A stretch of 64,000 nucleotides of DNA. Source: Cyanobacteriota bacterium. Its GTDB lineage: Bacteria > Cyanobacteriota > Cyanobacteriia > Thermostichales > Thermostichaceae. This document shows, piece by piece, positions 1-32,801 of the stretch (position 1 is the first letter of the stretch; every line of letters begins with the position of its first letter). A program made the translations under genes and the position numbers. Location: positions 32,001-96,000 of the forward strand of contig JANRIL010000005.1 in NCBI GenBank assembly GCA_033764955.1, given 5' to 3'. The notes beneath the pieces are model-generated. The model made no database searches. It was not told the origin of the DNA and was given only the letters and a program-made list of their open reading frames with translations.

Positions 1-2
1 CA

Positions 3-1125: not shown

Positions 1126-1180
1126 TAGAGCTTAAATTTATGACACTGGCGATCATTGAATGAGTTGCTAGCTGCCAGCC

Positions 1181-1265
1181 ACCTAACACTGGGTTGGTAC
1201 GGACGGTAGAAAGGCTATCTGTGGGAGTTCAAGGTTATCTGCTGCTACACAACTTCGACCTTCTG
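1181..1265 (+). mobile_element. Degenerate orphan attC-like site
   Basis: ACCTAAC-ACTGGGTTGGTACGGACGG...AAGGTTATCTGCTGC resembles the reverse complement of the attC family in the 21-30 kb array; R' GTT box eroded. Confidence 0.55.
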
Positions 1266-1680
1266 CTACGACATCTACTTGCTCAAGAACCTTAAAGACG
1301 GCTTAGCAGTAAGTAGTGAGATCCGTAACGGGTAATTCACGAAAAGGCTGTAAATAACGGATCCTTTCCGAATCCATTCCTCTCCATGGGCAGTCTTGCC
1401 CCCAAAGCTCTGTACAACTGCGATCCTCTTGCCCGCTTTGAGCACTTGATGGAATGGAGATGCGTCTGCCCTTTCCCAACTATCGAAGAGCATGATTAGG
1501 GCTGACACTGGAGCCAACCGGAGGGGTTGATCGTCGTCCTCACCTTCGAGCGCTGGGGATCAAGGATGGCAACTCAGAATGGCTGAAGCATTGGCTGTAG
1601 GGTCAGCTAACTCTGTGGTCTTGCGTGATCCTGAGGAAGAGGGAGTGAGCTATTTCTAGAGAGCAGATTGGCTAATTGAA

Positions 1681-4802: not shown

Positions 4803-5064
4803 CCGTGGCTCCTTATCCGGTAATGCTGCCTGTGGCCATGTTGGGGACAAGAAGCAGCCATTGGGATCCCTAAAAACCGTAGATCCAACCGTCATCTGAA
4901 GTCCATGGGTTTATTCTCCCTCACCAGGGAGCTAGGGACAATTGGGCTGAGGCGGAAAAGGGCTAGTTACTTATCGTCTTCCATTGTTGCCCAGAATACA
5001 TTTGACCTGTGAGATCTCTCCTAGTCTGGATGAGCCACGTGGATGGGTTCTTGAGGAGCTGCTT

Positions 5065-8773: not shown

Positions 8774-8972
8774 CCATAATTCGTTACAAAATCAGCCAGT
8801 CCCAAGAGCGGATGGGGTTTGCTCAGAAAGACAGCAAAAGTGAGATCCCCCTTCCCACAAGGGTTTTTATCTAGACAGCCAAAAACCCCATTTGGGGGAA
8901 TCGTTCGGGAACAAAGACACTTCGAGATGTGTCTTAAGATTTTGTAAACATTGCAACTTACATAGGTTTACA

Positions 8973-9515: not shown

Positions 9516-9591
9516 TATCCACTGTTAGCTCAGTCACCCAAGATCCCTTAATCCTGGGGATCCCAACCCATTCCTTCTAATCGTTGATGCC

Positions 9592-9619
9592 AGCCCTGTT
9601 CGCATGAGCAGGGCTATTT
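9592..9619. terminator. Probable intrinsic terminator between convergent genes
   Basis: AGCCCTGTTC-GCAT-GAGCAGGGCT hairpin followed by ATTT. Confidence 0.55.
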
Positions 9620-9657
9620 GATGGGGATCTGTAGGCAATACCCGATGAAAGCCCTGA

Positions 9658-10818
9658 CTAAAAATAGCGTCGCGGATTCACCGGTTGCCCCTTGACCCGT
9701 ACCTCAAAATGCACATGTGGTCCTGTGGATAGCCCGGTCGAACCGGAGGCCGCAATCGCCTGTCCCCGTTGCACGACCTGCCCCTTACCAACCACCAGCC
9801 GACTGTTGTGGGCATAGAGCGTGGTCAGCCCACCGCCGTGGTTGAGAATGACGGTGTTGCCATAGCCTCCATACCAGCCAGCATAAATAACGGTGCCACG
9901 ATCGGCGGCTCGCACAGTAGTGCCCGTAGCGACGCCAAAATCAATGCCGGCATGAAAACGCTGCGTGCGATAAACCGGATGAACCCGCCAACCAAAATTG
10001 CTGGTGACCGGTCCCCCGACGGGAGCCTGCAAGCGACCCGTTCCTTGCACGGGATCCCCCTTGGCGGTTTGCTGTGCAATCAACTGCTGAATCAACCCAC
10101 TCAGTTGGCGAGAATCCGCCTCCAGCCGTCCTTGAGCCGCTTCAAAGGCGGAGCGCTCAGTGGATAAGCGCCCGATCAATTGCTGCTGTTGAGCCGCCTG
10201 ATCTTCCAGTTGATCTTTTTGCTGAGCCAACTCCTGCAAGATCAGGGCAATCTCATTTTTTTGGCTTTCCAGGGCGATGCGTTGTTGCTGAACGGCTTGA
10301 GACGTGGTTTGCAATTGGCTAATCAGTTGCCGATCCGATTCGATCAACAATTGCAGTTGATGCCGTCGATCAAAAAATTGGTTGAGATCCTTGCTATTCA
10401 ACAGCAACGCCCACCAGTGTTCCGAGCCTTGTCGTTGCAGATAACGCAGTCGTGCCGCCGTCCCCGCCTGCTGCCGTTTTAGCTTGACCTCCAGAATATC
10501 CAGTTCCTTCTGGGCTTTTTCCAGGGCTTTCTGAGCCTGTTGCAGACGAAATTGTTGATCCTGGAGCTGCGTGTTGGTAACGCGGATATTATTTTGCAGG
10601 GATCCCATGCGCTGACGAGCCGCGTTTTCCTGCTGGCGCACCTGATCGAGACGGGTGGAGTTATCCTGGATTTGCCGTTGGATTTGCTGCTGTTGCTGCT
10701 TTAGGGTATCGACACTCTGAGCCTGGAGCGGCGGAGAAATCGCTAAAAACCAGGCTACCAGGACTCCCAAAAGCCACAGCCCTATCCTTCGGGTTCTCCA
10801 CAGCATGAACTTCCCCAC
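9658..10818 (-). CDS. EnvC-like coiled-coil M23 peptidase
   Basis: Long coiled coil; HAGID and GPHVHFEV M23 motifs. Confidence 0.88.
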   Translation of the reverse strand: MGKFMLWRTRRIGLWLLGVLVAWFLAISPPLQAQSVDTLKQQQQQIQRQIQDNSTRLDQVRQQENAARQRMGSLQNNIRVTNTQLQDQQFRLQQAQKALEKAQKELDILEVKLKRQQAGTAARLRYLQRQGSEHWWALLLNSKDLNQFFDRRHQLQLLIESDRQLISQLQTTSQAVQQQRIALESQKNEIALILQELAQQKDQLEDQAAQQQQLIGRLSTERSAFEAAQGRLEADSRQLSGLIQQLIAQQTAKGDPVQGTGRLQAPVGGPVTSNFGWRVHPVYRTQRFHAGIDFGVATGTTVRAADRGTVIYAGWYGGYGNTVILNHGGGLTTLYAHNSRLVVGKGQVVQRGQAIAASGSTGLSTGPHVHFEVRVKGQPVNPRRYF

Positions 10819-11239
10819 TCACACCTTAGCTGGCGCTCATCCTACCACGCGATTTTAAGACTGGTGGCGGGGAGAGGCTTACGGGCAAGCAAAATTCCGA
10901 AAAAAGTAGGGTGACGATTGTGACCGAGAATTGCAAAATAGAAGGAAATCGTCCGTACCATAAGCAAAAGCATAGGTATAGATTAAGATGACTGGCTCCG
11001 GAGCTAAGGAGGATTTTTCAGGCAAAACTACGCCATTTGTACGATTTAACTCCCACCGCTTCAGGGTTACGATAGGTACTTAAGATAGGGGTTAACAACT
11101 TTTCCCCTGCTGGCAAGGTATCCGCCTAGTCACCCAATGATGGGCTAAGGGTCAGGCCACGTTCCTCAACCTTCTCCCATGGATCAACCTACTGTCATTC
11201 GGGTAAATTTCGGGTAGTGGTAGCTTTTCGGACTGAGTC

Positions 11240-12886
11240 ATGCAAACGCCCAATTGTTTCTGTCTCAACCCTGCATGTCTGCAACCGGAGAACTTACCGG
11301 ATGCTGAGATTTGCAGCTCCTGCGGATCCCGGCTCCAGATTCGCAACCGTTACCGAGCCTTCAAAAAAATTGGTCAAGGGGGGTTCGGCGCAACCTTCCT
11401 AGCCCAGGATGGCGATCTGCCCTCCAAGCCATGGCGGGTGATCAAGCAACTGCGACCCGCTGAAAATTCCCCACAAATTGCCCAACTATCCCTAGAGCTA
11501 TTTAACCGCGAAGCACAGGTTTTAGAAAAACTGGGGGAACACTCACAAATCCCTAAGCTGTTTGCCTATTTTGAAGAAAATAGCAAGTTTTATCTGGTGC
11601 AAGAGTATATCCAAGGCATTACCCTCTCCCAAGAACTGCACCGCAATGGCGGCCCGATGAACGAGGAGCAAGTCCGCCAAATCATGCAGGAAATGTTATT
11701 GATATTGAGTTATGTTCACAGTCACAATACGGTTCACCGCGATATTAAGCCTGCTAACTTAATTCGCCGCAAAGCGGATCAGCGCTTGGTGCTCATTGAT
11801 TTCGGAGCGGTTAAAGAGTTGGGTCCACCCGGCAAAGAGCAGGCTGTAGAAGTCACAGCGATTCGTTCCCTGGGCTTTTCTCCCCCCGAACAAATCAATG
11901 GGCAACCGGTAGGTCCCCCCAGCGATCTCTATGCCCTAGCCGCCACTTGCATCAACTTGCTCACAATGGAGTCACCCGCCAAGTTTATTGATCAGAACCA
12001 AAACCGCTGGGATTGGTCTAGCCGTCTGCAACTGAGTCCTGAGTTTGATGCCATTCTCTACAAGATGTTGCAACCCGCCATCAATCTGCGCTACGCCTCG
12101 GCCACAGAGGTATTACGGGCACTGCAGGGCATGGGAGAAGAGGCTATCTCTCAACCGATTATCCTGCCCAAAAGCTATGGGCCAGCACCAACGGCGGCTC
12201 CTCCTTCACCGCTGATTTCCGGTCACTGGGGATCCCGTCGATCCGAAGGCTTTCAGCCTGTCCCTACTGTGCGCCCTCCCATAACGGGCAGTAGTGGCGG
12301 CTTTACCAGCGGCGGGAGTGGCCTCTCGATGAGCGGAGGGCGCACCAGCACCACAGGGTTTAGTCGTACCCAGCCCACCACACCCAGGGTTGTCTCCATG
12401 GCGGGAGCCGATCTGCGGGGGAAATCTTTTACCAACCAAAACCTTTCTGGTCGAGATATGCGGCGGGCGGACATCCGCGGTACGGATTTCTCCGGTGCCA
12501 ACCTACAACGCTCGGATCTGCGGGGCATTATCTTTAACAAGCCCCAGCCCCCTTGGCTACGTACCCTCAGTTGGATTTTTGGGCAAGCCAAGACCCTAAC
12601 GGGCATTGCTGCTGGGTTAGCCGCCCTCATGGGGGCGGGGATTGTGGCCTTTTTAGTGGTGTTTAAGTTGGTAGGGTACTTTTGGGTAGCCATCGCGGCG
12701 GCGGTGATGGGGGCGGTGATGGCCTGGTCAGCCATCTGGTCGCTGACGGGACGAGTCAGCCTCACCCGCTATAACGAGGAACATAGCAAACGCCATACCT
12801 CCCTCCGCAAGACTGATTTGCGGGGTGCTCAAATGGAAGATAAACTCCGACAATTTGCCCGCCATCAGGGAGCTATCCTTGACTAA
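11240..12886 (+). CDS. Ser/Thr protein kinase with pentapeptide repeats and TM segments (SpkB-like)
   Basis: Cys-rich N-terminus, GQGGFG, HRDIKPAN, DFG; A(D/N)Lxx repeats. Confidence 0.88.
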   Translation: MQTPNCFCLNPACLQPENLPDAEICSSCGSRLQIRNRYRAFKKIGQGGFGATFLAQDGDLPSKPWRVIKQLRPAENSPQIAQLSLELFNREAQVLEKLGEHSQIPKLFAYFEENSKFYLVQEYIQGITLSQELHRNGGPMNEEQVRQIMQEMLLILSYVHSHNTVHRDIKPANLIRRKADQRLVLIDFGAVKELGPPGKEQAVEVTAIRSLGFSPPEQINGQPVGPPSDLYALAATCINLLTMESPAKFIDQNQNRWDWSSRLQLSPEFDAILYKMLQPAINLRYASATEVLRALQGMGEEAISQPIILPKSYGPAPTAAPPSPLISGHWGSRRSEGFQPVPTVRPPITGSSGGFTSGGSGLSMSGGRTSTTGFSRTQPTTPRVVSMAGADLRGKSFTNQNLSGRDMRRADIRGTDFSGANLQRSDLRGIIFNKPQPPWLRTLSWIFGQAKTLTGIAAGLAALMGAGIVAFLVVFKLVGYFWVAIAAAVMGAVMAWSAIWSLTGRVSLTRYNEEHSKRHTSLRKTDLRGAQMEDKLRQFARHQGAILD

Positions 12887-13353
12887 GCTAAGCTCATATC
12901 CTCCGGGGGAAGCGGGATCCCTTGCAGGTAGCGGTTAACCTGGGCTTGCAGATCCGCCTGCATCACGCTTTTTCCCACCTGCCGCTCTCCCGCTTGGTCA
13001 TAAAACAACAACCCCTCCGCCTGCTGAAGCCCCAATCCCAAAAAGAGAATGGACAAAACCTCCAGGGGCACAACCTGTAAAGGGAGATTTTGCAGGGATA
13101 ACTCCTGCTGAGTAGTCTGGGCATCCGACTCATGACCATAGGCCAACAGCCAGCGCTGCCCTTCTTGGCTCCGCAGGGTTAGCCAACTTTCATCGGGATA
13201 TCGCAGCAAAAAATATTCCTGATAGTTCAGGGATCCCGCCACCTCCTGCAATACCATCACTACCTGTTCCATGACCGCCATCGGTAACTCCTGCTCATGA
13301 GCCGACTGCAAGAGGGTCTGAGCTTGCTCCGTCAAATCGCGCACCATTGACAA
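12883..13353 (-). CDS. Hypothetical cyanobacterial protein
   Basis: 156-aa ORF with host-like composition. Confidence 0.6.
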   Translation of the reverse strand: MSMVRDLTEQAQTLLQSAHEQELPMAVMEQVVMVLQEVAGSLNYQEYFLLRYPDESWLTLRSQEGQRWLLAYGHESDAQTTQQELSLQNLPLQVVPLEVLSILFLGLGLQQAEGLLFYDQAGERQVGKSVMQADLQAQVNRYLQGIPLPPEDMSLA

Positions 13354-21200: not shown

Positions 21201-21316
21201 GAGCCGAATCCGTCAGAAACTACTCTCATATTCCCTGATTCTTCGGGAGGCTTCTCCTATTTACCTGGGATGGTTGCGTTGGATCTAAACGGGATAGCTA
21301 GCACGTAGATAGGCTC

Positions 21317-21417
21317 GAACTCAGCACCAGATGCTCTCAACCGTCCGCTGCCTTTGAATGGTTAGGCTATGTCGCTTAATCGCTTGACTTTGTTCTGGTG
21401 CATTGGGATTGTTATGG
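21317..21417 (-). mobile_element. Two truncated attC half-sites at the distal end of the array
   Basis: CAACCGTCCGCTGCCTTTGAATGGTTAGGC (ends 21367) nearly matches the arm of attC 25855-25941; CTGGTGCATTGGGATTGTTATGG contains the GNAT stop. Confidence 0.65.
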
Positions 21418-21891
21418 GGAGGAATTTCCCAGTGCTTTCCGGAAAATGATTTTGTCGTCTCCAGCCTTGTAAAATTCTCGAATTCTCGCTTCCTCGTCAT
21501 AGCCACTTTTGCGGTAAAACCCACGAACGTACTCAAATTCCTCCAGTCCGGACGTTTCTACCAATAGCACACGCTCACCGTACTTAGTCAGCATTTGCTC
21601 AACATGGTTCAACAAAGCCGCTCCACGTCCCTGTCTTTGGTAGTTGGGATGAATAGCGATTAAATGGAGAGTCCACGTTCCCTCTGTCATACGTTCTGGT
21701 GCAACGTAGGCAACACCCACTAGCTCATTATCGTAGTCGCTAAACCACATACCTTGGCTGTCTGTTTCATCACTGAAATGCTGGTTTAGCATTTGAGCCA
21801 GTTCTTCAATTTGATTTGACTCGAAAAGTCCAGTCGCCTCTGCCAAAGCAAGTAATGCATTCGTGTCATCGGGCGTAGCCAGTCGAATCAT
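21412..21891 (-). CDS. GNAT N-acetyltransferase (cassette)
   Basis: QRQGRG motif, FYRKSGY; stop lies in an R'' box (CCATAAC). Confidence 0.85.
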   Translation of the reverse strand: MIRLATPDDTNALLALAEATGLFESNQIEELAQMLNQHFSDETDSQGMWFSDYDNELVGVAYVAPERMTEGTWTLHLIAIHPNYQRQGRGAALLNHVEQMLTKYGERVLLVETSGLEEFEYVRGFYRKSGYDEEARIREFYKAGDDKIIFRKALGNSSP

Positions 21892-22049
21892 AATGAGTTC
21901 TAGTCAAGGCTTATACTTTTGCTTTCATTATTCAAGCACCAACATTAAAATCCTCCATTGCCTCAATAAGAAATTCCTGAGATATTTGGAGCTAACAGAT
22001 AACCTTTTAGCTACCGCCCCAACCGTTGATTTAAGCCGGATAAGATATG

Positions 22050-22141
22050 TATTAACAGCGTTGCCCATTACCCGCCGCAGAGAACCTCTGTCTGATAACT
22101 GACCAATTTTCAGCAGTCGGCATGCATGGGTATGGTTATGC
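22050..22141 (-). mobile_element. attC site (partly degenerate)
   Basis: TATTAAC...GCCCATTACCCG...CGGCATGCATGGGTATG-GTTATGC imperfect inverted repeat; R'' matches the cassette start at 22720. Confidence 0.7.
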
Positions 22142-22192
22142 ACCGATCGCCTACGGACGGCTACTACAACAATGGGATCCCATTCTCAATGC

Positions 22193-22636
22193 TCATGAAT
22201 TGGATCGCCCTAGATCGAATAAGAACATCACATGGTCGCTTGGTGGTTCTGGACTGCCAATAGTTGCATAAAGGCTCATCGCTGCCGTATTATCGCGATC
22301 GGTCAACACCCAAGCGAATTCACAATTTAACTCCCGTCCTACCATAAGTATTGCATTCATCAATTGCTTCCCGATACCTTGCCGCCGATAGTTTTCTGCA
22401 ACACCAATTTCATTAATCCACAGTTCTGGACAAGGCTTGTCAGGATGAACATAATGAACAGCTGATACAAACCCGATGACAAGATTGCCATCAGTTGCGA
22501 CACCTAAATGGTGGCGAGGATCGCCGAGAAACTCAATAGCTCGTGGGATATTGATTGGGTGATCGAATACATCCGGATCGACGTTTTTGAGAATATCCAC
22601 ATCGCTGTGGTTGAGAATTTTGATTGTGATCGCCAT
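22193..22636 (-). CDS. GNAT N-acetyltransferase (cassette)
   Basis: ELWINEIGV..YRRQGIG, N.AA..LY. Confidence 0.85.
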   Translation of the reverse strand: MAITIKILNHSDVDILKNVDPDVFDHPINIPRAIEFLGDPRHHLGVATDGNLVIGFVSAVHYVHPDKPCPELWINEIGVAENYRRQGIGKQLMNAILMVGRELNCEFAWVLTDRDNTAAMSLYATIGSPEPPSDHVMFLFDLGRSNS

Positions 22637-22713
22637 AGTATCTTCTATGTAGATTCCCCTCACTTTAATAGATTATGGCCGATTCCCTGGCTCAGTCATC
22701 CATTGGACGAGCT

Positions 22714-22801
22714 GCATAACGTTCCGGTTGAGCGGCTGCCGATAACCTTTGCCACCTTACTAATCAACTTTATTCAGTCCGCTCCAACCGGGCTGGCAGG
22801 C
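22714..22801 (-). mobile_element. attC site with mutated R'' box
   Basis: GCATAAC-GTTCCGGTTGAGCGGCTG...CAGTCCGCTCCAACCGGGCT-GGCAGGC (GTTAGGC expected). Confidence 0.8.
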
Positions 22802-23181
22802 ACGCTTCGCCGCCAAGATATAAAAGTCAAAACCCAATACAAAAAGCCAACCAGACCGCCGCCATAAATAAGACCTAAAGATAGCACCGAGTTAAATGTA
22901 TAGTCTGGGTGATGTTCCAATAACTTGTGTAGCCCAGCATGAACTATAAGAAATGTAGTAAATGCAATCCGTGACCAGTGCCGAATACTTAGAGATTCGT
23001 TATTTGTTAACCACAGGAGTGCTGCAATCAATGGTATGTGAATAACCACAAAAGTAAATGATGCAATATGTTCAGGCAAGCTTCGTAGTATAAACAGCAA
23101 TCTCCATTCTGATTGCGTCATGGCATCAAGTTCGTGAGTGATGAGCGTCGCAAAGCCTAAGTGAAAAAGCAGGTTCCCCAT
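22774..23181 (-). CDS. Small four-TM membrane protein (DUF6713-like; cassette)
   Basis: THELDAM..EWRLL motif, hydrophobic; reads into attC. Confidence 0.65.
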   Translation of the reverse strand: MGNLLFHLGFATLITHELDAMTQSEWRLLFILRSLPEHIASFTFVVIHIPLIAALLWLTNNESLSIRHWSRIAFTTFLIVHAGLHKLLEHHPDYTFNSVLSLGLIYGGGLVGFLYWVLTFISWRRSVPASPVGAD

Positions 23182-23272
23182 AAAATATTAGATTCCTCTG
23201 TTTGGACTTTACAACTGGGGGAGTGGCTAAGATTTTTACAAAGCATGATACTTCTCTATCATAAATTCTGCT

Positions 23273-23327
23273 GCCTAACGACCTAGCTCCCCACGCCCGC
23301 CAGATCAGGTGCAGCGCCTGGTTCGGC
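23273..23327 (-). mobile_element. Short (55 bp) attC of a different family
   Basis: Minus strand GCCGAAC-CAGGC-GCTGCACC...GGGGAGC-TAGGTC-GTTAGGC. Confidence 0.75.
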
Positions 23328-23342
23328 ATGCCCACTACAACT

Positions 23343-23686
23343 CTAACTGCTTGGGCGATTGACGGGAATCAATTGTCCATGAAGATCAGGTATTGGCTGG
23401 ATTGTGTTGTGAATCCGTCTCGCCTGCCCTGTGAAGTCGGGATCAACGGTGCAGACAATAACGCGCCCGCATGCCTCGAATCCTGGTTATGCAGGCGGAT
23501 GAAGTCTCTCCGGTTGAGGGTCAGTACTGCTCGATCTCCCGAGATCGCGAGTTTAAGCACTTCAGGATCAGCAACTGCCTCGCTCGCTCTCCCTCGTTCT
23601 TGGATCGTGACCACGTCGTGTTCCAGAGACCGCAGCCCCTCAACAACCGGGATCGGAAAGTTCTCATTAGAGTACATGCGAGCCAA
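23343..23686 (-). pseudogene. DUF5615 PIN-like toxin, frameshifted
   Basis: NENFP, D..VL, LTLNRRDF, HAG; an extra GC at 23463-64 shifts the frame away from VIVCTVDPDF...VNRPSS*. Confidence 0.75.
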
Positions 23687-23688
23687 GA

Positions 23689-24064
23689 CTACTCCTCTTC
23701 GTTCTCGCGGATCTCCTTCTCGATCTCAATCCGGTGCCTGGCAGCATACGACCATGCTTGGACAAGGTCAACAGCTCGCAGAGTGGGGTAGCTGCGAAGG
23801 ATGTCGATCTCAGAGGCTCCAAGTTGCCGCATTCGCTCAACCGTCCACACCGGGATTTGCGTGCGGATAAAGCGAGCCGCCCCACCACAGACGCTTGGAG
23901 TCGCAACGATCGAGGGGTGCTCTTGGGCGTGGTGCTGCGGAAGCCATCTGAACATGAACGGATGGAATGGGAGCATCTGCTACGAGAGAGCGAAGGTAAG
24001 TTCTTCGCTCTCAACTGGGTTCAGTTCAGCGATCTGAATCCATAATTCGGTTAAGCTTCAGCAT
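23689..24064 (-). pseudogene. DUF433 antitoxin, N-terminus apparently disrupted (intact core ORF 23689-23976)
   Basis: TPSVCGGAARF.RTQIPVW...YPTL core; in-frame TAG at 23980-82 and an out-of-frame ATG near 24064. Confidence 0.65.
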
Positions 24065-24121
24065 AAATCTACCTGAGCTTCCGTGCTCTATTATCAGTCC
24101 GCCACAGATCAACGGAAAGCC

Positions 24122-24180
24122 ACCGAACGGTCGCGCTCACCCGCCGTGAGTCATCTATCACGCTCACAGGATTGTTATGC
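24122..24180 (-). mobile_element. Internally deleted attC site
   Basis: R'' GCATAAC and L'/R' arm GGTGAGC-GCGACC-GTTCGGT are present, but the L'' partner is missing. Confidence 0.65.
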
Positions 24181-24209
24181 CGTTCGTAAGTGGATCTAAT
24201 TAGACGTTG

Positions 24210-24641
24210 CTAACTGAGAGCAGGTGGTGCAAGACTTGGTGCAACTTCTGGATTGGGCAAAGCAGGTAAAGGTTCTTCAGAAGTTGGCATATCAAGATGC
24301 TGTGTGTAAATCACTTGATAGAGTTGGGGTTCTGACTTAACCACAAGCCCTTGAAGACGCTGCAAATGATCAGCAAAACCAGGGCTATTTCGCATCGCAA
24401 CATAATCTTCCACAGAGGTGAAGTGAGCATAGTTAGCTGCCCGTGTGCGATCCAGACTAACGTGTAAATTAGCTGTGTAACCACCTGGGAATTGACCCTT
24501 TAATCGCTTATACTCACTAACCTGTGTAGCGACAAATTGTTCCGTCTTATCAGGATTAAGTGTAAATATATTGATCAGTACAATGCCATTGCCGACGTGA
24601 ATAAGGTTAACCGGAAATCCATTTTCTAACTGTATGTCCAT
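24210..24641 (-). CDS. Antibiotic-biosynthesis-monooxygenase (ABM)-like protein (cassette)
   Basis: LINIFT...ANLHVSLD..RAANYAHF ABM-like pattern. Confidence 0.7.
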   Translation of the reverse strand: MDIQLENGFPVNLIHVGNGIVLINIFTLNPDKTEQFVATQVSEYKRLKGQFPGGYTANLHVSLDRTRAANYAHFTSVEDYVAMRNSPGFADHLQRLQGLVVKSEPQLYQVIYTQHLDMPTSEEPLPALPNPEVAPSLAPPALS

Positions 24642-24664
24642 AAATCTACTCCTGCGATACTAGC

Positions 24665-25399
24665 TTATAGAATTCCGCCATTGACTTGAATTGTTTGACC
24701 ATTGACCCAACGAGCATCATCAGATGCCAGAAATGCAACCACATCTGCGATATCAGTAGGCTGTCCAAGCCGTCCTAGTGGAGTTGATTGGATCAACTGG
24801 TTTAAGGCATCAGCAGGCATAATTAATCCATCCGTTTCAGTAACGCCTGGTGATACCAAATTCACAGTGATACCCCGATGCCCTAACTCTTTAGACAGGG
24901 CAAAACTAAATTGTTCGATCGCAGCTTTACTAGCAGCGTAGACTCCTCCCATCGGAATACTTTGCTTGGTTGCACCACTAGACAGGCTAATGATGCGTCC
25001 ACCATCACTAAGATGCTTTGCCGCTTCTTGCAAGGCAAAAAATGTTCCCTTAGCATTGGTGTTGAAGACCCGATCGAAATCAGATTCAGTCATGTCAATT
25101 GTCGGTTTGTAAACAGATACGCCGACATTGTTGACTACGATATCAACTTGACCAAATATGTCGAGAATCTGAGCAAATAGATTTCGGGTATCTTCAATAC
25201 GACTGGTGTCTGATTGAATCGCGATCGCTTGCACTCCATTGCTCTGAATGCCAGCAACTACTGCTTCTGCTTTTTCTCGGTTGCCTGCATAGGTGATTGC
25301 AACTTTTGCACGCTCACGCCCCAATCGTTCGGCGATTGCTCGCCCAATCCCCCGCGATGCGCCCGTAACCAACGCTACTTTCCCTTGCAATGAAGACAT
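24665..25399 (-). CDS. SDR oxidoreductase (cassette)
   Basis: TGASRGIG, YAASK, PG.TET. Confidence 0.92.
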   Translation of the reverse strand: MSSLQGKVALVTGASRGIGRAIAERLGRERAKVAITYAGNREKAEAVVAGIQSNGVQAIAIQSDTSRIEDTRNLFAQILDIFGQVDIVVNNVGVSVYKPTIDMTESDFDRVFNTNAKGTFFALQEAAKHLSDGGRIISLSSGATKQSIPMGGVYAASKAAIEQFSFALSKELGHRGITVNLVSPGVTETDGLIMPADALNQLIQSTPLGRLGQPTDIADVVAFLASDDARWVNGQTIQVNGGIL

Positions 25400-25517
25400 C
25401 ACTTTGTTTCCTTATTCTGAAACACTGAAATTGACCAATAACAAGGTATGCTTTTACTGATTTTTTGGGAAGTACTTACTTTTTTGTAAGTCCCTATTGC
25501 TCATCAGGTATAAAATC

Positions 25518-25850
25518 ATGCAGCCAGAGCAAAACGACGGCACACTATTTGTACAGGCGACACTAAAAGTTCTGGGTGGAAAGTGGAAGCTTTTAATTTT
25601 GTGGCATCTAAAAGATTCAGCAAAGCGGTATAGCGAACTGAAGCGCTTAATTCCTGAAATCACTGAAAAAATGATGATCCAGCAACTTCGCGAACTAGAA
25701 CAAGATGGAATTATTAGCCGTAGAATGCTTTCAGATATGCCACCAAAAGTCGAATACGCTTTCACAGCCTATGGCATAACGCTCATACCCATCTTTAAGC
25801 CCTTGTGCGAGTGGGGGCAAGAGCATCTAAAACGTATCAGTACTGATTGA
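25518..25850 (+). CDS. HxlR-family transcriptional regulator (cassette, divergent)
   Basis: GGKWKLLILWHL, LRELEQDG, PPKVEY. Confidence 0.9.
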   Translation: MQPEQNDGTLFVQATLKVLGGKWKLLILWHLKDSAKRYSELKRLIPEITEKMMIQQLRELEQDGIISRRMLSDMPPKVEYAFTAYGITLIPIFKPLCEWGQEHLKRISTD

Positions 25851-25854
25851 GACA

Positions 25855-25941
25855 GCATAACGGCTCAAATCAGCGGCAGCAGACAACCTTTACGACTCTA
25901 CCAGGGGCTTTCAACCGTCCGCTGCATTTGAATTGTTAGAC
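25855..25941 (-). mobile_element. attC site (intact)
   Basis: GCATAAC-GGCTCAAATCAGCGG...CCGCTGCATTTGAATT-GTTAGAC; R'' complements the cassette start at 29751. Confidence 0.9.
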
Positions 25942-25996
25942 ATCGTTTAACCTGTAGTATCTTTACAAGGGTTTGAATAACAACTCTCGTCAAACA

Positions 25997-28588
25997 TCAT
26001 ACTTGCACTTGCTGCTGCACCTGTAAAGATGCTTGAGCTTGGACAAATGAGTTGTAAATAGCAATTTCCGAGTTGACAATCTCAAAACTAATAGTTAAGG
26101 CGTAAGGTACTTGAGCAGTTAAATCATTATTCCAGCCTTTATGCGCTACAATCGCTATACAGAAGGTATCTCGCAAGTCGAAAGATTTGACTACTGCCCA
26201 ATCTTTTTGAATTGTTCCAACTCCTCTGGAGGTATCCTTAACTCGTCTACTATGATTTTTTTGCTGCCCAAGCGTCCAATCGAATAACCCCGATCCATCT
26301 TCTTGATCTTCAGAGGCTTCGTATTTTTCAAGAACCCTAGCTAGAAACTTATCTGGTGATTCTTCTTTTTGGCTACATTCCCAATGTAACCAAGTAGATA
26401 AATATTTACGTTTGTTGCGTCGTGTTCGACGTGGTTCAGCTTTGTAAGAAAGCGTAATCTCAACAAGAATATCAAAAGCTTCTGCCGGAGACTGTAGCTC
26501 CTCTGGAATAATTACTTGGTAGATATGTGCTTGCCGCGCTCGGATGAGACTGTCCCCATTAGTAATCAATGTCACACGGTTAGGTGCATTACCAAGTGCA
26601 CGTTCAAGATTGGGCAAACCATATCCCATCATACGAATGGCTGGTGAAAGATCGAGTTCATTATTTGTCCATGAAGGTAATCGTGCTGACTGCACAATCA
26701 AAGCTTTATAGAGCAAACAGCTTTCCTGAGGAAAATTAGATGCTAATGCTGCTGCAATATGAGTAACTTTAGGTGCTGCGAAGGAAGTCCCTATGCTATC
26801 TGCTGCGATCGCTGGTGCTCCCCCCATCGTTGTCCGTACTAACTCAGGGCAAACATCTTTAGGTGTAGAAAAGCTGGGTGGATTTCCTTCATCCTTAACC
26901 CAATCACCTCCATATTCAACGACTTCAGGTTTTATCGAATCCCAAATGCCGTAGCCTGTGCAAGAAAATGCTGAAGGATAATCTTGTGATGCTACAGAAG
27001 TGAGAGGTGGATTATTGTAGGTGCAGTGAGCAATTGATCCCACTGTTAAAGCTTGAAAACTTTGAGCAGGATTCGCGATACGAGACGAATCCTGCAACAG
27101 AAAGTTTGGATATGTACATCCTTTTTGGAAATATTCTGTGAGCGTTCCACGAGTGATACTAAGCCCTACACCTCGCCCTCTAGGAAGGTTTCCTGCTGAA
27201 ACAATAAATAGAATATCGTTTAGCCATGTAAGGTAATCTATTTCAGCCGCCCAAGCACTCATGTAAGTTCTTCGACAAGGTGCAGAACTATTAATTGAAT
27301 GATTAAAGATGCGAGTGCCTGTTTGACCATGATAGAAATCCACAATGTACTTTAAGACATCTGGCATGTATAGTTTGTCCGGAAGCAGGCAATTCTGCCC
27401 TAAAACTCTAGCGTTCTGAAGCCAACAAATTGCCCTCTGTCGTCCAGTACGTGGAACTCCTTGAGGATATAAAACTGCTCCAGCGACTCGGGTGCCATGA
27501 CCACCGTCTGATACACGGTCTATTGTTTGGTCAGTCTCATAAGGAATCCAAGATCGCGAGTTAATACTATCTATAGCAACATGCAATAAGCGGTGACTTT
27601 CTTGAATACCACTGTCAACGATGCAGATTTTTGGAGCCAATGGAGATGGTGGATCAAGGTTAAAAGAGGATTGGTCAGGTGTTTCTAAGGTGCGCTCGAT
27701 TAATGGCTCAGCGGCCTGTTCTCGCTCTATGACCTCAAAAACATAGGGATAGTTCGTAACTAAATCTTTCAAACCCTTGCCAGAAATTTCGATCCGGCTA
27801 GAGAAGCTGTCAGGCAGCAGTGCAAGATGCGAACGATCATCATGATCACCAAGCAGAAGAAAATTTCCACCAAGATCTCTTACAAAATGTTCAAAATCAT
27901 TTTCTCTATCAAGTTGCAGCCTTTCCCATTCCTGTAAGGTTTGGTCACGCCTATCAGTCCATCTAGCAATCCTATGAGCATACCTCTCAGGATCTTCATT
28001 CTCATCTTGACGAGGGTAGTCCGAAAACCTAGAATTTAGGCCGACACAGGCAATACTGACATCAACCGTGTAAGTTTGACCATCTAGAATCTGATCCCAC
28101 TTAGAAAGTAAATCTGGTGAAAGAATATATTCTAGACGCTCAAACTTACCTTCTAGAATTTCCCAGATCTCAGCGACCTTCCCTCCGCCATGTTCTTCAG
28201 CAATAAACTTCTCGATTTTTTCCTGAAGTTTAGTCAACTCAGCATCAGCCGAAGCACCAAGGATATAGCCATCCTCAAGCTCAAGAATAACTTCGATACC
28301 AAAGCTCTTGAGGGTGTCTGCATCAAATGATTTTGGATCTACTTGAAGCAGAAACGAAGGAAGATTTGGAATGTCTGGCATTCCTTCTTGCTGACGTTTC
28401 TCCAAGGTAGCCTTCCAATCAGAAATAATTGATGATACAGAAGACTTAAGCCTCCCACCATGTCCACCTGCATCTCCTCGATTGGCATTAGAGCGATCAG
28501 ATCGCCGGGGTGGCCTTCCAGGACGTGCAAAATCTGTTTTTGTGAGTCTTAGTGGAATGTGCTTGAATTGTTCCGATCGCTCAGGCAT
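25997..28588 (-). CDS. S8 subtilisin-like serine protease (IetS-like)
   Basis: Triad IVDSG / GHGTRVAG / GTSFAAP; overlaps the AAA gene by 8 bp. Confidence 0.9.
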   Translation of the reverse strand: MPERSEQFKHIPLRLTKTDFARPGRPPRRSDRSNANRGDAGGHGGRLKSSVSSIISDWKATLEKRQQEGMPDIPNLPSFLLQVDPKSFDADTLKSFGIEVILELEDGYILGASADAELTKLQEKIEKFIAEEHGGGKVAEIWEILEGKFERLEYILSPDLLSKWDQILDGQTYTVDVSIACVGLNSRFSDYPRQDENEDPERYAHRIARWTDRRDQTLQEWERLQLDRENDFEHFVRDLGGNFLLLGDHDDRSHLALLPDSFSSRIEISGKGLKDLVTNYPYVFEVIEREQAAEPLIERTLETPDQSSFNLDPPSPLAPKICIVDSGIQESHRLLHVAIDSINSRSWIPYETDQTIDRVSDGGHGTRVAGAVLYPQGVPRTGRQRAICWLQNARVLGQNCLLPDKLYMPDVLKYIVDFYHGQTGTRIFNHSINSSAPCRRTYMSAWAAEIDYLTWLNDILFIVSAGNLPRGRGVGLSITRGTLTEYFQKGCTYPNFLLQDSSRIANPAQSFQALTVGSIAHCTYNNPPLTSVASQDYPSAFSCTGYGIWDSIKPEVVEYGGDWVKDEGNPPSFSTPKDVCPELVRTTMGGAPAIAADSIGTSFAAPKVTHIAAALASNFPQESCLLYKALIVQSARLPSWTNNELDLSPAIRMMGYGLPNLERALGNAPNRVTLITNGDSLIRARQAHIYQVIIPEELQSPAEAFDILVEITLSYKAEPRRTRRNKRKYLSTWLHWECSQKEESPDKFLARVLEKYEASEDQEDGSGLFDWTLGQQKNHSRRVKDTSRGVGTIQKDWAVVKSFDLRDTFCIAIVAHKGWNNDLTAQVPYALTISFEIVNSEIAIYNSFVQAQASLQVQQQVQV

Positions 28589-29624
28589 GAGAAGCTAAAA
28601 CGTCTTGAATTGATTCTTCTAGATGCTCTTGGATGACTAACTCTTCTCGATCCAGAATGGCTCGTTTCGCAGCATCTTGGGCAACCCTGACAACCTGTGC
28701 AGCAGAGAAATTGATCATCTTCTGAATAATCGAGTTCCAATCGATTGAGCCAACTTCAACCGAAGAGAGTGTCTGCTTCAGGATAACCTCAATTTCTCGC
28801 TCTGTCGGTTTTGGCACTTCAATAGCATCATCAAATCTTCGCCATACAGCTTCGTCTAGAAATTTAGTTAGATTAGTTGCAGCAACAAGCAAACCATTTG
28901 AAACCTCGTACTCGTCAAGTAGTTGAAGGAACGTGTTGACTACACGTTTGATTTCACCAACTTCCTGGCTATCTTCACGGGACTTAGCAAGCGCGTCACA
29001 TTCATCAATAAAAAGCAAACAAGGCGATGCAGCAGCTGTTTCAAATACTTCACGCAGGTTGGTCGCAGTTTCTCCTAAGTATGAGGATACCATTGCATCA
29101 AAGCGAACCTTGATCAAGGTTAAACCTGTGTTCCAAGCAATCCGTTCGGCTCCCATCGTTTTGCCGCACCCTGGAGAACCATAAAGTAAAATCTTTTGGC
29201 GATACCGTAAACCATGATGAGCAAGCCGATCACGAGCAGCATATTCCCGTTCAATACGGCGGAACCGTACTTCCACAGCATCAGAAAGGATCATATGATG
29301 CCGCAAATTCTCACGGGGAATCGTAACAATAAACGGATGATTGAATCTATGCTTGCTCGATAAGAGGGTGAGAGAGCGTGTGTCAGACGCTTTTGCAGCT
29401 TTCTCTAAGGACGCTGAAGGATTTGCTCGTACAGAACCTGATGATGATTTTTCAGATTTGGCAAGATTGGTGTTTTTCCGCAGAATGCCTTCGAGTTGGC
29501 TAGCAAGATTGATATGCCCTAGCTTGCGTTCTTCCTCTACTACGATGGCCAGCATACTCTGTATCGCCCGTGAGTCGTCACTGGCAACAGCACGGAATAA
29601 ACGTTTTAGCACCTCTCCCTTCAT
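28581..29624 (-). CDS. AAA+ ATPase (IetA-like)
   Basis: GSPGCGKT Walker A, LFIDECD Walker B, AATN, RRFD. Confidence 0.9.
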   Translation of the reverse strand: MKGEVLKRLFRAVASDDSRAIQSMLAIVVEEERKLGHINLASQLEGILRKNTNLAKSEKSSSGSVRANPSASLEKAAKASDTRSLTLLSSKHRFNHPFIVTIPRENLRHHMILSDAVEVRFRRIEREYAARDRLAHHGLRYRQKILLYGSPGCGKTMGAERIAWNTGLTLIKVRFDAMVSSYLGETATNLREVFETAAASPCLLFIDECDALAKSREDSQEVGEIKRVVNTFLQLLDEYEVSNGLLVAATNLTKFLDEAVWRRFDDAIEVPKPTEREIEVILKQTLSSVEVGSIDWNSIIQKMINFSAAQVVRVAQDAAKRAILDREELVIQEHLEESIQDVLASHA

Positions 29625-29744
29625 TCTTCGACCCGTCGCCCACAACCATACAGTTCCACTCTTACAATACCTAAACCTCCCGAAATCTTATGAAAACTTT
29701 ACAAAATTAAAATGTGTGCTCTTTGATTTGGTGTTGGCAATGAT

Positions 29745-29831
29745 GTCTAACGTTCCGGCTGAGCGGCTGCAAGTAACCTTTGCAACATAACCAGTATCTT
29801 TCAACAGTCCGCTCCAGCCGGGTTGTTAGCC
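29745..29831 (-). mobile_element. attC site (intact)
   Basis: GTCTAAC-GTTCCGGCTGAGCGGCTG...CAGTCCGCTCCAGCCGGGTT-GTTAGCC; extrahelical bases place the top strand on minus. Confidence 0.92.
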
Positions 29832-29859
29832 CCTTGACTGGGCTTTGCTGAGCAGATCT

Positions 29860-30255
29860 TTAAGCAATATGCCTAAACTCAAATTCTCCATTTACAACCT
29901 CAACTAAGATGATTAATCCACGCCCTACTGATTTAGCAAATTTGAGAGCCAAGTAAGCTTCTACAACATTTTTACCAATACCTACAGAAAATGTGGCGAC
30001 TAATCCTGAATGGATTTTAATAAGCTTTTCGATAAAAGATTGGTAACTTTTCACTTCAACTAGAAGACTGTCACCTCCTTGTAAATATGTTTTCCCTCCA
30101 ACACTATCAGCGGCTAAGCGGATACTATCGACCGACTTATTAACGGAATGACTATATTCTATTAATTCATCCAGTTTATTAGATATGATCAGTTTTTCTA
30201 TCTTGCGACCTACCAGATCTCCATCAATAGCAACGAAAAAAGATTCTATAGTCAT
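29860..30255 (-). CDS. mCpol (minimal CRISPR polymerase/Cas10 palm-like) nucleotide synthase
   Basis: VAIDGDLVGRKIE, GGDS, FSVGIG, AYLALKFAK motifs in a 131-aa standalone protein. Confidence 0.82.
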   Translation of the reverse strand: MTIESFFVAIDGDLVGRKIEKLIISNKLDELIEYSHSVNKSVDSIRLAADSVGGKTYLQGGDSLLVEVKSYQSFIEKLIKIHSGLVATFSVGIGKNVVEAYLALKFAKSVGRGLIILVEVVNGEFEFRHIA

Positions 30256-31268
30256 CGTCCTGAAAGCTTACTCCAAAATTCTTGACTAGCTCTTGCACAC
30301 CGGAAGCTTTCCAAAGCGAGATTAATACAAACTCGAACCTCATTAGCTTCAAACTTGTGAGATGAGATACCTGCATGAGCCGAAATATTTCTGAACATTC
30401 TCAAAGGTGTTAATAAGCCAGGAACCGTCAACACAGAATCTAAATTCTTATCAACGTAATCTCGGTTTCTGCTGCTTATCTCAGAGTATTTCCTGAAGAA
30501 GAAAGTGACTGCTCCCAGAGGGTCTTTTTGTTTCTTCAAATCAATATCGAAATCATTGGAAAATCTCTGTGCTGGCGGATAGTGCGTTAAAAAATCTAAA
30601 AGATCATTTATAAAAACCTCGCTTGAAGTTGTTGCATCCACTACTGCGCTGCGAAAATTGTCGCCTTGAAAAAAAGAGAATATACTTTTTCTCAAATCAT
30701 TACTTATTCTCTGAAGAAATGAACTTTCAGAAACCCCAGAAAATATTTTGTCAATTTCTTCAAGGTAAAAGATTAAGTCAAAATAGCTTAGCCGTGACAG
30801 ATCGGCAATTCCTGTAAATGGGGGTAGTTGAACATATTCATAATGTTCTCCCCAAACAGGTTCATCCGGTATTTCTCTTGGAGGAAACAATAGAGAGATG
30901 TAGTAAATATTTTCTATCTTTAGCAAACTTGCAGTGAGATAGAGTTGGGCAGTAACAGATTTTTGTCCATTGGTTAAGTCTACGTATTTAAGAGAATCTT
31001 CCTTGAAAACAGCAGTAAAATCTTCTGCCTTTCCAATTCCATCAGTGCTTAAGGGCACTTTTTCTATTCTTATTTGATTGCCTAAAAATGCTTCATATAA
31101 ATTGACCTGCTCAGTAAAAAGATTGTCCTTAAGAGCTTCAGACGAAGAGAAAAGGACAACTTTTAATATTGGAGTACTTCTATTTTTCTTTATCAAACTT
31201 TTTATAGTAATTGCTACAAGCCTAACTGTGTTAAGGTTTGTGTTTCCGCAAGTGTATAAAACAGACAT
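30252..31268 (-). CDS. CARF-HEPN effector (putative cyclic-oligonucleotide-sensing RNase)
   Basis: N-terminal Rossmann-like region with YVDLTNGQKS CARF motif; C-terminal RNISAH (RxxxxH). Confidence 0.78.
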   Translation of the reverse strand: MSVLYTCGNTNLNTVRLVAITIKSLIKKNRSTPILKVVLFSSSEALKDNLFTEQVNLYEAFLGNQIRIEKVPLSTDGIGKAEDFTAVFKEDSLKYVDLTNGQKSVTAQLYLTASLLKIENIYYISLLFPPREIPDEPVWGEHYEYVQLPPFTGIADLSRLSYFDLIFYLEEIDKIFSGVSESSFLQRISNDLRKSIFSFFQGDNFRSAVVDATTSSEVFINDLLDFLTHYPPAQRFSNDFDIDLKKQKDPLGAVTFFFRKYSEISSRNRDYVDKNLDSVLTVPGLLTPLRMFRNISAHAGISSHKFEANEVRVCINLALESFRCARASQEFWSKLSGR

Positions 31269-31344
31269 ACTATGCGCTCTGCACTCAATTTATGTTGATT
31301 CTGCCAATCATCTCTCAACTACGTCACAACAGACAAGGTGAAGG

Positions 31345-31380
31345 GGGCTAACTAGTTAGTATACGGAAATTTTCCGTATA
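31345..31380 (-). mobile_element. Candidate attI site
   Basis: Minus-strand GTTAGCCC at 31352-31345 exactly complements R'' of attC 29745-29831; adjacent perfect palindrome TATACGGAAA-T-TTTCCGTATA. Confidence 0.75.
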
Positions 31381-31398
31381 ACCTCCCATTTTAGGTTT

Positions 31399-31427
31399 AC
31401 TATACTGAAACTTTCTGGTTAACACAA
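31399..31427 (-). promoter_or_regulatory. Candidate Pc cassette promoter
   Basis: TTGTGT-17 nt-TATAGT pointing into the array. Confidence 0.45.
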
Positions 31428-31551
31428 CCATTGGGTCTAATATGCCGATTTATTCTGGGTAATATCCCCTAAAAGCGTGTTATGCCGAAATATGCATGGT
31501 TTTGTGGCAAGACTGATACTTAAGGCCAAAAAGAAGCAAGTAGAAATACTT

Positions 31552-32532
31552 ATGCCTTTGGGTGGAGAGATCCAGCCACCTAGAAAATTGCTTGATAGAG
31601 TCCGTGATGTGATTAGACTCAAGCACTACTCCTATCAGACTGAGAAAACTTATATACAATGGATTCGGCGTTTCATTTCGTTTCATAACATACGACATCC
31701 GACAGAGATGCGCGGTGCTGAGGTTAACTCATTTTTGACTCATCTTGCTGTCTCTGAGAATGTTGCAGCTTCCACTCAAAATCAGGCACTCTCGGCCATT
31801 CTGTTCCTTTATCGAGAGGTAGTCCACACTGAACTTGCTCTGAATTGGGATGCTGTTCGAGCTAAGCGTTCTCGATATCTACCCACGGTCTTGACTACTC
31901 AGGAAATTTTCTTGGTCTTACAACATATGTCGGGTGTTTACTCACTATTGACGAGATTGCTCTACGGTTGTGGTTTGCGTCTAAATGAAGCACTTCAGTT
32001 GCGTGTCAAAGATATAGACTTTGCCCAGCACCAGATTATCGTACGAGATGCCAAGGGGATGGAAAGTCACACTACAATGTTACCCTCAAGTATTGTTCAA
32101 AAATTAGCTGAGCATTTGCAGGCTGTAAAGGGCTTACATCAGCAAGATTTGGAACGAGGTTACGGGGTAGTTCATTTGCCGTTTGCTCTAGCCCGACAGT
32201 ATCCCAATGCGGCTAAAGAATGGATTTGGCAGTATGTTTTTCCATCAGATCGGATCTCTCAGGATCCTCGTGGTGAGGCAATGCTCCGTTATCATCTCCA
32301 TGAAAGTGGCTTGCAAAAGGCGATCAAACAAGCCGTGAAGGTCGCAGGTATTCAAAAAAGGGTAGGGTGCCATACTTTTCGGCATAGTTTTGCCACCCAT
32401 TTGCTGCAAAACGGGTATGACATTCGCACGGTACAAGAGCTTCTGGGACACAAAGATGTCAAGACAACCATGATCTACACTCATGTATTGAATAAAGGCG
32501 GTCGTGGAGTGAGAAGTCCACTGGATGATTGA
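31552..32532 (+). CDS. intI: Integron integrase
   Basis: [38 protein letters not shown], plus the IntI-specific insertion ([20 protein letters not shown]). Confidence 0.96.
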
Positions 32533-32801
32533 AGCGTTGGGATCCCCTGCGGATGAGGGATGACTTCCAGGCACGGAAGCAAGATAAAGGTGTGGGATCC
32601 GGAGTTAGGTTATTCGATGCAGGTATCTAGATTGAAACGGGGCGATATTACAAGGGTGTTGAATCAGTACTACTATGGATGACGGCCTTACACACGGTCT
32701 AACAGTCCCGTTTGCCCACCGATCGGATCCCGTTGGCTAAGTGAGTCCGCAAGGTTATTAGCGACGGGTGAATGGGGGCGGTATTGAATTGATGACAGAC
32801 C

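Follow-up and report, generated by a model that had tools for sequence, protein, structure and literature searches.

Does the gene array beside ilvD in a cyanobacterium of the Thermostichaceae belong to a complete integron, and do the cassettes nearest its integrase carry systems that might protect the cell against phage? The locus lies in a stretch of 64,000 nt from contig JANRIL010000005.1 (assembly GCA_033764955.1, positions 32,001 to 96,000), referred to below as the window, in which a first-pass annotation had proposed a complete integron with defence cargo at its front. This proposal is borne out by an intact integron integrase gene (intI), by two intact recombination sites (attC1 and attC2), and by the two cassettes that these sites close, which encode an mCpol/CARF-HEPN pair and an IetAS pair. 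We therefore read the locus, with a probability of about 0.85, as a complete integron in the chromosome next to ilvD, whose front cassettes 1 and 2 are defence systems and whose back is decaying. We infer, in addition, that the integrase recombines, that the cassettes are expressed from a promoter near the attI site, and that the cargo has an anti-phage function.

The recombinase is an integron integrase, IntI. Its gene (31477..32532, plus strand) is a 351-codon open reading frame (ORF) without a frameshift that opens at a GTG codon at 31477. Because relatives are annotated as proteins of 321-347 aa, however, the ATG at 31552 is favoured as the true start and would likely give a 326-aa form, as in those relatives. 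The protein scores 451 bits with the TIGR02249 "integron integrase" model, for which the cutoff is 265, and is matched in Pfam by both PF00589 and PF13495. Residues 39-350 align with residues 6-318 of VchIntIA in its solved structure, 2a3v (phmmer, E 5.9e-87) with one single-residue gap, which falls inside the IntI-specific additional segment (190-215) by which integron integrases are told apart. Counted on this alignment, the catalytic R-K-H-R-H-Y residues are R168, K193, H299, R302, H325 and Y334, opposite what we take to be R135, K160, H267, R270, H293 and Y302 in Vch numbering. These columns are invariant among 22 aligned cyanobacterial IntI sequences, and the earlier description of an intact IntI with all of its catalytic residues and the IntI insertion is correct. 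A protein search finds one relative at 90% identity and none other above 77%; the closest IntI among the matches listed from a genome scan is 76% identical.

The cassette genes lie on the minus strand, so the folding (bottom) strand of any attC site is the plus strand of the window. Three repeats of about 90 nt (29743-29833, 25853-25943 and 22712-22803) share an AAC/GTT R stem of 5 bp, separated by one spacer base from an L stem of 16 bp whose 3' arm carries two single-base bulges, and in 5 of their 21 base pairs both sides change among the copies and remain paired. We built one covariance model (R1) from these three repeats and a second (R2) from 31 sites, the latter acting as a general attC detector, and ran both on 80 other IntI loci, which are those fetched with an IntI alignment among the genome-scan matches listed and leave out the window's own genome and the relative with 90% IntI identity. 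R1 finds 53 sites in these loci at E ≤ 1. In an alignment of 33 sites, 95.8% of cells are paired, compared with 25-40% when the partner column is slid, double changes occur in 13 of 21 pairs, and the covariation score is reached by none of 500 shuffles, although this alignment was fitted to the model, leans to structure for that reason, and includes one reverse-strand row. R2 gives 103 matches at E ≤ 0.01, corresponding to 100 distinct sites. Most of these (84) precede intI and lie on its coding strand, as the window's own sites do; 9 follow intI on the opposite strand, the arrangement of integrons with an inverted integrase, and 7 precede it on that opposite strand. R2 is not restricted to the 90-nt type because it also recovers 18 regularly spaced sites of 64-119 nt, 15 of them 64 nt long, in one Pseudoxanthomonas array. 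The position of 84 of the 100 model sites upstream of intI on its coding strand identifies the repeats of the window as attC sites, and these sites set the cassette boundaries. At least one such site is expected of a complete integron, and the window has three intact ones that score 76-108 bits with R1 and R2. A scan with Rfam gathering thresholds returns only two tRNAs in the window; Rfam is without an attC family. As a separate observation, attC matches downstream of intI on the opposite strand, as in the inverted-integrase arrangement, are seen in loci L038, L047, L056 and L067, which are from Acidobacteria, Actinomycetota, Omnitrophota and Spirochaetes.

The site nearest the integrase, attC1 (29743..29833, plus strand), scores 108 bits with R1 and 94 bits with R2, and folds as DNA into all elements of this shared structure, both bulges included, with a z-score of -3.4 relative to shuffles. 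Read on the minus strand, its boxes are R'' GGCTAAC (29831-29825) and R' GTTAGAC (29751-29745). The second site, attC2 (25853..25943, plus strand; 100 bits with R1, 86 bits with R2), has R'' GTCTAAC at 25941-25935 and R' GTTATGC at 25861-25855, and its L stem differs from that of attC1 by compensatory changes. The third, attC5 (22712..22803, plus strand; R1 101 bits, R2 76 bits, fold z -2.45), retains its L stems and an R' box GTTATGC (22720-22714), but its R'' box is degraded to GCCTGCC with loss of the AAC, and the models flag two of its R-box pairs as non-canonical. Beyond these, attC6 (22048..22143) is degenerate (R1 24 bits, E 1e-4; R2 22 bits, E 2e-3; nhmmer E 7e-4) and its R' box is GTTAATA (22058-22052) rather than GTTATCA. 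A shorter version of attC6 proposed earlier (22093-22141) folds no better than shuffles and is the inner part of this longer site. attC7 (21307..21367) is a half site consisting of the R''-L'' arm (nhmmer E 1.1e-5, model positions 29-89 only); its 40-nt arm is 88% identical to the corresponding arm of attC2, and the L'-R' half is absent from the alignment. Two further candidates are rejected as attC sites: attC3 (24122-24180) has a fold z of +0.9, and attC4 (23273-23326) one of +1.3, neither is matched by R1 or R2 at E ≤ 10, and the sequence profile gives E-values of 2.2 and 34, respectively. The array of about seven cassettes that had been proposed therefore keeps three intact sites, a degenerate attC6 and half of attC7, whereas its attC3 and attC4 lack attC structure.

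A cassette opens at G|TT and carries its own R' box to its start, so its start box should complement its terminal R'' box. Cassette 1 (start GTTAGCC, terminal R'' GGCTAAC), cassette 2 (GTTAGAC, GTCTAAC) and cassette 6 (GTTATGC, GCATAAC) all do so as reverse complements at 7 of 7 positions, and their terminal boxes all lie inside sites supported by the covariance models. An intact attC whose R'' box complements the cassette's own start box, as in cassettes 1 and 2, is the signature predicted for IntI-mediated insertion. Every box listed in the first-pass annotation exists where it was placed. Of its five pairs of matching start and R'' boxes, however, only those of cassettes 1, 2 and 6 are found in model-supported sites, and the others fall at the attC3 and attC4 junctions. 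Between attC2 and attC5 these boxes form a chain: GTTATGC leads to GCATAAC, GTTCGG, 52 nt further on, leads to CCGAAC, and GTTAGGC, another 47 nt on, has a variable part that complements the degraded attC5 R'' box GCCTGCC. When the 3,053-nt region is simulated 3000 times with a first-order Markov model, such a chain appears in 7 of the runs; this test was defined post hoc, after the data had been seen. Because the chain is rare by chance, we retain the attC3 and attC4 places as probable old junctions, real but with decayed L stems, and not as working attC sites.

At the integrase end of the array we assign a putative attI region (31346..31470, minus strand). It contains three 22-nt palindrome-type elements (31462-31441, 31422-31401 and 31381-31360) spaced by 40-41 nt, the third being a perfect palindrome, and 3' of these an L/R simple site, CTAAC-TA-GTTAGCC, built on the inverted repeat CTAAC-TA-GTTAG. 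The GTTAGCC box of this site (31352-31346) complements GGCTAAC, the R'' box of attC1, at every position, and the crossover would be placed at G|TT at 31352. The same layout recurs elsewhere: the 330 nt upstream of most cyanobacterial intI genes hold several TTAnnCnGAAAnnTTCnGnnTAA palindromes, the last followed after 5-7 nt by AGTTAnnC. An iterated nhmmer profile started from the window's unit gives 26 matches at E ≤ 0.01 in 1.03 Mb, of which 23, from 14 of the 81 sources, fall in the 450 nt that precede intI. This conserved arrangement of palindromes and AGTTAnnC upstream of intI supports the region as a candidate attI, as had been proposed earlier together with a promoter. The conserved attI architecture in the cyanobacterial IntI clade amounts to three to five 22-nt palindromes about 41 nt apart, with half-sites that resemble R' and R'' boxes around a GAAA..TTTC centre and with AGTTAnnC after the last; it is seen upstream of intI in the window and in L001, L002, L004-L006, L010-L013, L015-L017 and L021. 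The palindromes could be accessory IntI-binding sites or the sites of a regulator. Outside the palindromes only 14-15 of the 41-42 positions of the units are identical, and Tandem Repeats Finder reports no repeat in the attI region. Among the titles listed by a literature search, none concerns a cyanobacterial attI.

Cassette 1 (29751..31351, minus strand; 1,601 nt, G+C content (GC) 0.375) consists of a Csm6-like CARF-HEPN gene (30252-31268, minus strand; 338 aa), a gene for mCpol (29860-30255, minus strand; 131 aa), and attC1, the two ORFs overlapping by 4 nt. mCpol scores 73.2 bits with PF18182 (cutoff 26.4) and 59.6 bits with NF033576 (cutoff 40), and carries IDGD and GGDS motifs. The fused PADLOC profile PDLC01967 CARF_HEPN_mCpol matches both ORFs, over its positions 4-216 and 351-460, respectively. 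The family of the 338-aa protein is small: a search of 1.84 billion proteins gives 82 representatives at E ≤ 1e-3. Across 30 homologues, residues D97, G101, R293 and H298 of this protein do not vary, and K103 and N294 hardly do; R293-x4-H298 fits the HEPN R-x4-H motif, and D97/G101/K103 fit what we take to be the CARF motif. An AlphaFold model made from the family alignment has a pLDDT of 93.7, and its best matches in the Protein Data Bank (PDB) are Csm6 and Csx1 (E 4.8e-07), with TM-scores that are low over whole chains (about 0.3) and 0.5-0.6 on CARF-only chains. Two homologues have an N-terminal TIR domain. Proteins of the distant filamentous cyanobacteria Ancylothrix and Planktothrix share 81-84% identity with the cassette-1 protein, and a search of the CARF-HEPN protein against plasmids gave no match.

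Cassette 2 (25861..29750, minus strand; 3,890 nt, GC 0.437) contains IetA (28581-29645, minus strand; 354 aa), IetS (25997-28588, minus strand; 863 aa) and attC2. PADLOC scores are 264 bits for IetA, which also matches Pfam AAA, and 188 bits for IetS, which also matches Pfam Peptidase_S8; the two ORFs overlap by 8 nt. This is the adjacent AAA+ ATPase and S8 protease pair by which IetAS is defined, and both proteins are full-size, the PADLOC profiles having 330-395 and 749-855 positions, respectively. The identities of the cargo families in cassettes 1 and 2 agree with the earlier statement that the two attI-proximal cassettes are multi-gene defence systems, one of them about 3.9 kb long.

The remainder of the array begins with a 3,141-nt region (22720..25860, minus strand), previously divided into cassettes 3-5 and described here from Pfam matches and reading frames. 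It opens with an hxlR-type regulator gene (25497-25850, plus strand) that is divergent from an SDR gene (24665-25402, minus strand) inside the array, a unit that carries its own regulator and presumably its own promoter. There follow a 143-aa ORF (24210-24641), a putative junction placed by the R-box chain (24180-24122), a DUF433 gene (23689-23976), a DUF5615 gene (23343-23686), a second putative junction from the same chain (23326-23273), and a DUF6713 gene (22774-23181) that runs into attC5. In the DUF433/DUF5615 toxin-antitoxin pair, the gene for the PIN-like DUF5615 toxin is frameshifted near 23486, its C-terminal part lying in another frame. Cassette 6 (22058..22719, minus strand; 662 nt) holds a GNAT acetyltransferase gene (22193-22663, Acetyltransf_1) and the degenerate attC6, and cassette 7 (21307..22057, minus strand), at the array end, another GNAT acetyltransferase gene (21412-21891) and the half attC.

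Taken together, these assignments suggest how the locus may work. IntI, a tyrosine recombinase, would recombine the folded bottom strand of an attC site (the plus strand of the window) with attI at G|TTAGCC (31352), so that incoming circular cassettes would be inserted directly beside intI, and cassettes 1 and 2 would be the most recent captures. In cassette 1, mCpol, a mini Cas10-type nucleotide cyclase, and the soluble Csm6-like CARF-HEPN RNase would form a defence based on cyclic-oligonucleotide signalling, while in cassette 2 the IetA AAA+ ATPase and the IetS S8 protease would act as a defence system. Each of these cassettes has an intact attC and should remain excisable. The hxlR/SDR unit, the broken DUF433/DUF5615 pair, DUF6713 and the two GNAT genes would be older cargo, and these distal genes are probably fixed in place because their recombination sites have decayed.

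Composition bears on where this platform came from. The palindrome GGGATCCC, published as a HIP variant of the hot-spring Synechococcus strains OS-A and OS-B' (PMC4390886), occurs 72 times in the window compared with about one copy expected from base composition. It is absent between 22174 and 32539, a span of 10.4 kb in which 13.9 copies are expected at a density of 1.34 per kb (Poisson P of none, 9e-7); cassette 6 holds a single copy, at 22174. GC is 0.375-0.464 in cassettes 1, 2, 6 and 7 and in the attI-intI segment, the last having a value of 0.437, compared with 0.52-0.54 in the flanks. The whole platform, intI included, is compositionally foreign to the GGGATCCC-rich genome, and its most foreign parts are the two attI-proximal cassettes, which suggests their recent insertion.

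Two decayed attC-like relics lie outside the array. One (32695..32788, minus strand; R1 20.6 bits, E 1e-3; R2 22.4 bits, E 2e-3; nhmmer E 0.034) is 160 nt past the intI stop codon, is oriented opposite to the array, contains GGATCC, and gives no fold signal (z 0.07). It has the geometry of inverted-integrase integrons, and together with the half site at 21307-21367 it borders the foreign block with attC remnants in inverted orientation. The other (1179..1268, minus strand; R2 33 bits, nhmmer E 1e-8) ends a segment, window positions 1-1268, in which two plus-strand genes, GNAT (truncated by the edge of the window) and SDR, precede the relic. This segment holds 4 of the 8 GCGATCGC (HIP1) sites of the window and no GGGATCCC, and resembles a two-gene cassette of HIP1-type cyanobacterial origin left stranded 30 kb away from the integron.

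The foreign composition could also be explained if the integron, rather than being an old resident of the chromosome, belonged to a mobile element that arrived beside ilvD by recent transfer, for instance from a plasmid. The attI and intI segment is itself low in GC and devoid of GGGATCCC, ilvD is not near intI in any of the 80 other IntI loci by tblastn, and attC-like relics flank the element in inverted orientation. Moreover, the Kovacikia minuta plasmid pB (L081, 58.5 kb) carries, at 4537-12954, a 68%-identical IntI with five attC matches. Positions 21300-32800, however, show neither clear terminal repeats nor genes for a transposase, for conjugation or for replication, and the lack of GGGATCCC from the 1.06 kb of intI alone is not significant, about 1.4 copies being expected. 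We regard a recent arrival of this type as doubtful. Searching the 80 loci by tblastn with ilvD, the other flanking genes and all of the cargo proteins reveals no common context or cargo with few exceptions, which are ABC-transporter paralogues, a weak match to the SDR protein in L076 (26% identity), and an mCpol in L028 that is 31% identical. For the flanking ilvD, none of the best 120 of at least 8000 matches exceeds 85% identity.

Beyond the fitted alignment mentioned above, several findings weigh against a complete integron that is still at work in this chromosome. The attC2 fold is canonical, but its energy is no better than that of shuffles (z -0.75). The NCBIfam models give 230 bits for IteA against an equivalog cutoff of 510, and 107 bits for IteS against 900; because they are so far below these cutoffs, IetA and IetS are divergent members of their families. 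Among the matches listed from the genome scan, no relative is closer than 76% in IntI identity that could show a gain or loss of cassettes. As for the promoter that had been proposed together with attI, there is no consensus promoter on the cassette strand in 31150-31700, where one site is found on the other strand and 1.9 are expected; a TATAGT in the attI region (31406-31401) was noticed by eye only. Finally, the distal half of the array is decaying: attC5 has lost its AAC, attC6 is degenerate, attC7 is a half site, and DUF5615 is frameshifted. With half of the array's sites degraded, any present-day activity of IntI is presumptive.

This decay, together with the attC3 and attC4 places that lack stem structure, the attC relics outside the array, and the missing promoter consensus on the cassette strand, would also fit an integron that was once active and has become a fossil, its array now a fixed island that behaves as an ordinary defence island and its intact-looking IntI no longer moving cassettes. 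Such a loss of function is at odds with an IntI that keeps all of its catalytic residues and has no frameshift, with intact attC1 and attC2 sites and their exact R-box bookkeeping, and with proximal cassettes whose composition is the most foreign of the array and suggests recent insertion, and we consider it unlikely. That the 90-nt repeats are instead a general genomic family, REP- or HIP-associated, beside which a tyrosine recombinase lies by chance near a defence island is effectively refuted and scarcely credible: two weaker copies do occur outside the array (1179-1268 and 32695-32788), but all three strong copies (76 bits or more) in the 64-kb window sit in the array beside intI, the model matches in the 80 loci favour the window's orientation upstream of intI, and the invariant AAC/GTT boxes, bulges and compensatory L stems fit attC.

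Among cyanobacteria, defence genes at the front of an integron are not confined to this window. We surveyed the cargo of 13 cyanobacterial arrays (41 ORFs) with PADLOC at E ≤ 1e-5 and with Pfam. PADLOC matches are found in L028 and in L016, the latter having a PDC-S70 candidate and a methyltransferase, and Pfam further identifies several toxin-antitoxin genes and, in L006, a nuclease of the Mrr type. In L028 (6828-10000) the first cassette has mCpol with CARF-TM, the type II Panoptes layout, and the second pairs a small ORF with the gene for a protein that has an ADP-ribosyltransferase toxin domain of the Tse2 type. On the Kovacikia plasmid, cassette 1 comprises a type II C5 methyltransferase and a 278-aa ORF, and cassette 3 a fused AriAB (PARIS) protein (676 bits). 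PADLOC matches are thus present in 4 of 15 arrays, and in the first cassette in 3 of 15. First cassettes of these arrays measure 0.85-3.5 kb from the start of the intI match to the first attC match; sites of the Pseudoxanthomonas array are mostly 0.33-0.7 kb apart. The first-pass annotation went further and proposed that the integron serves this lineage as an anti-phage platform whose content is rapidly updated. This may be so, and it is favoured indirectly by the low GC (37-44%, compared with 52-54% in the flanks) and the missing GGGATCCC of cassettes 1 and 2, by the close match of the cassette-1 protein to proteins of distant cyanobacteria, and by the defence systems in the first cassettes of L028 and of the Kovacikia plasmid; the decay of the distal half speaks against a purely dynamic array. 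It is possible, and we suggest it only tentatively, that cyanobacterial integrons form a distinct working class with a multi-palindrome attI, attC sites of about 90 nt shared across orders, and an IntI that moves long multi-gene cassettes. If so, integrons of this class, both chromosomal and plasmid-borne, could pass full-size defence systems from one cyanobacterium to a distant other, examples being the 3.9-kb IetAS, a 2.2-kb type II methyltransferase cassette (probably restriction-modification), fused PARIS, and mCpol systems, and the class would contradict the rule that defence cassettes of integrons are miniaturised.

The locus also differs from the sedentary chromosomal integrons of the Vibrio type, which we take to be defined by tens of cassettes, homogeneous attC sites and vertical inheritance. 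The array has 5-7 units and ends at 21307, its intI is foreign in composition, and the locus is not conserved among the 80 IntI loci. Its interest lies in being a clean, fully delimited case of full-size two-gene defence systems carried as integron cassettes with intact recombination sites, in a phylum in which integrons have hardly been studied. The mCpol/CARF-HEPN system is experimentally uncharacterised, and the exact cassette boundaries make both defence systems easy to clone and test.

Integrons in Cyanobacteria are already on record (10.1101/030866; PMC2426708), and a Cyanobacteria-specific attC covariance model has been published (Ghaly et al. 2021, PMC8352920), in which, as in R1 and R2, cyanobacterial attC sites are modelled as one taxon-specific family. 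With the complete integrons described for IntegronFinder (Cury et al. 2016; 10.1101/030866) the window shares an IntI with its specific segment, an attC array on the opposite strand, the predicted G|TT crossover, and cassettes that are mostly promoterless and co-oriented. Unlike these, its array is small, with 5 model-delimited units and decayed distal sites, and its cassettes are large (0.66-3.9 kb), two of them with more than one gene. Cassette 1 resembles the Panoptes systems, of which type I pairs mCpol with a 2TM-beta effector (PMC12657218) and type II with CARF-TM (PMC13577387), in having a stand-alone mCpol (PF18182) cyclase in a two-gene operon with a cyclic-nucleotide sensor/effector. 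In place of a membrane effector, however, its partner is predicted to be a soluble Csm6-like CARF-HEPN RNase. Coupling or fusion of mCpol to HEPN RNases is described as less frequent, and whether the signal inhibits or activates in mCpol-HEPN systems is said there to remain to be seen (PMC12657218). Sedentary chromosomal integrons have been presented as biobanks of anti-phage systems (Darracq et al., 10.1101/2024.07.02.601686), and mobile integrons also encode defence systems (10.1101/2024.07.02.601719); phage-defence cargo, including two-gene cassettes, is common to those integrons and to the window. The main text of the former contains no occurrence of IetAS, mCpol or cyanobacteri. It describes integron defence systems as streamlined and unusually small, and long cassettes as recombining poorly (10.1101/2024.07.02.601686), with which the full-size 3.9-kb IetAS cassette is at odds. 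If this cassette is mobile, the size limit for cassette recombination would be looser than that, at least in this IntI clade. The integron beside ilvD accordingly adds a clear case to a phenomenon that was described recently, and does not represent a new kind of system.

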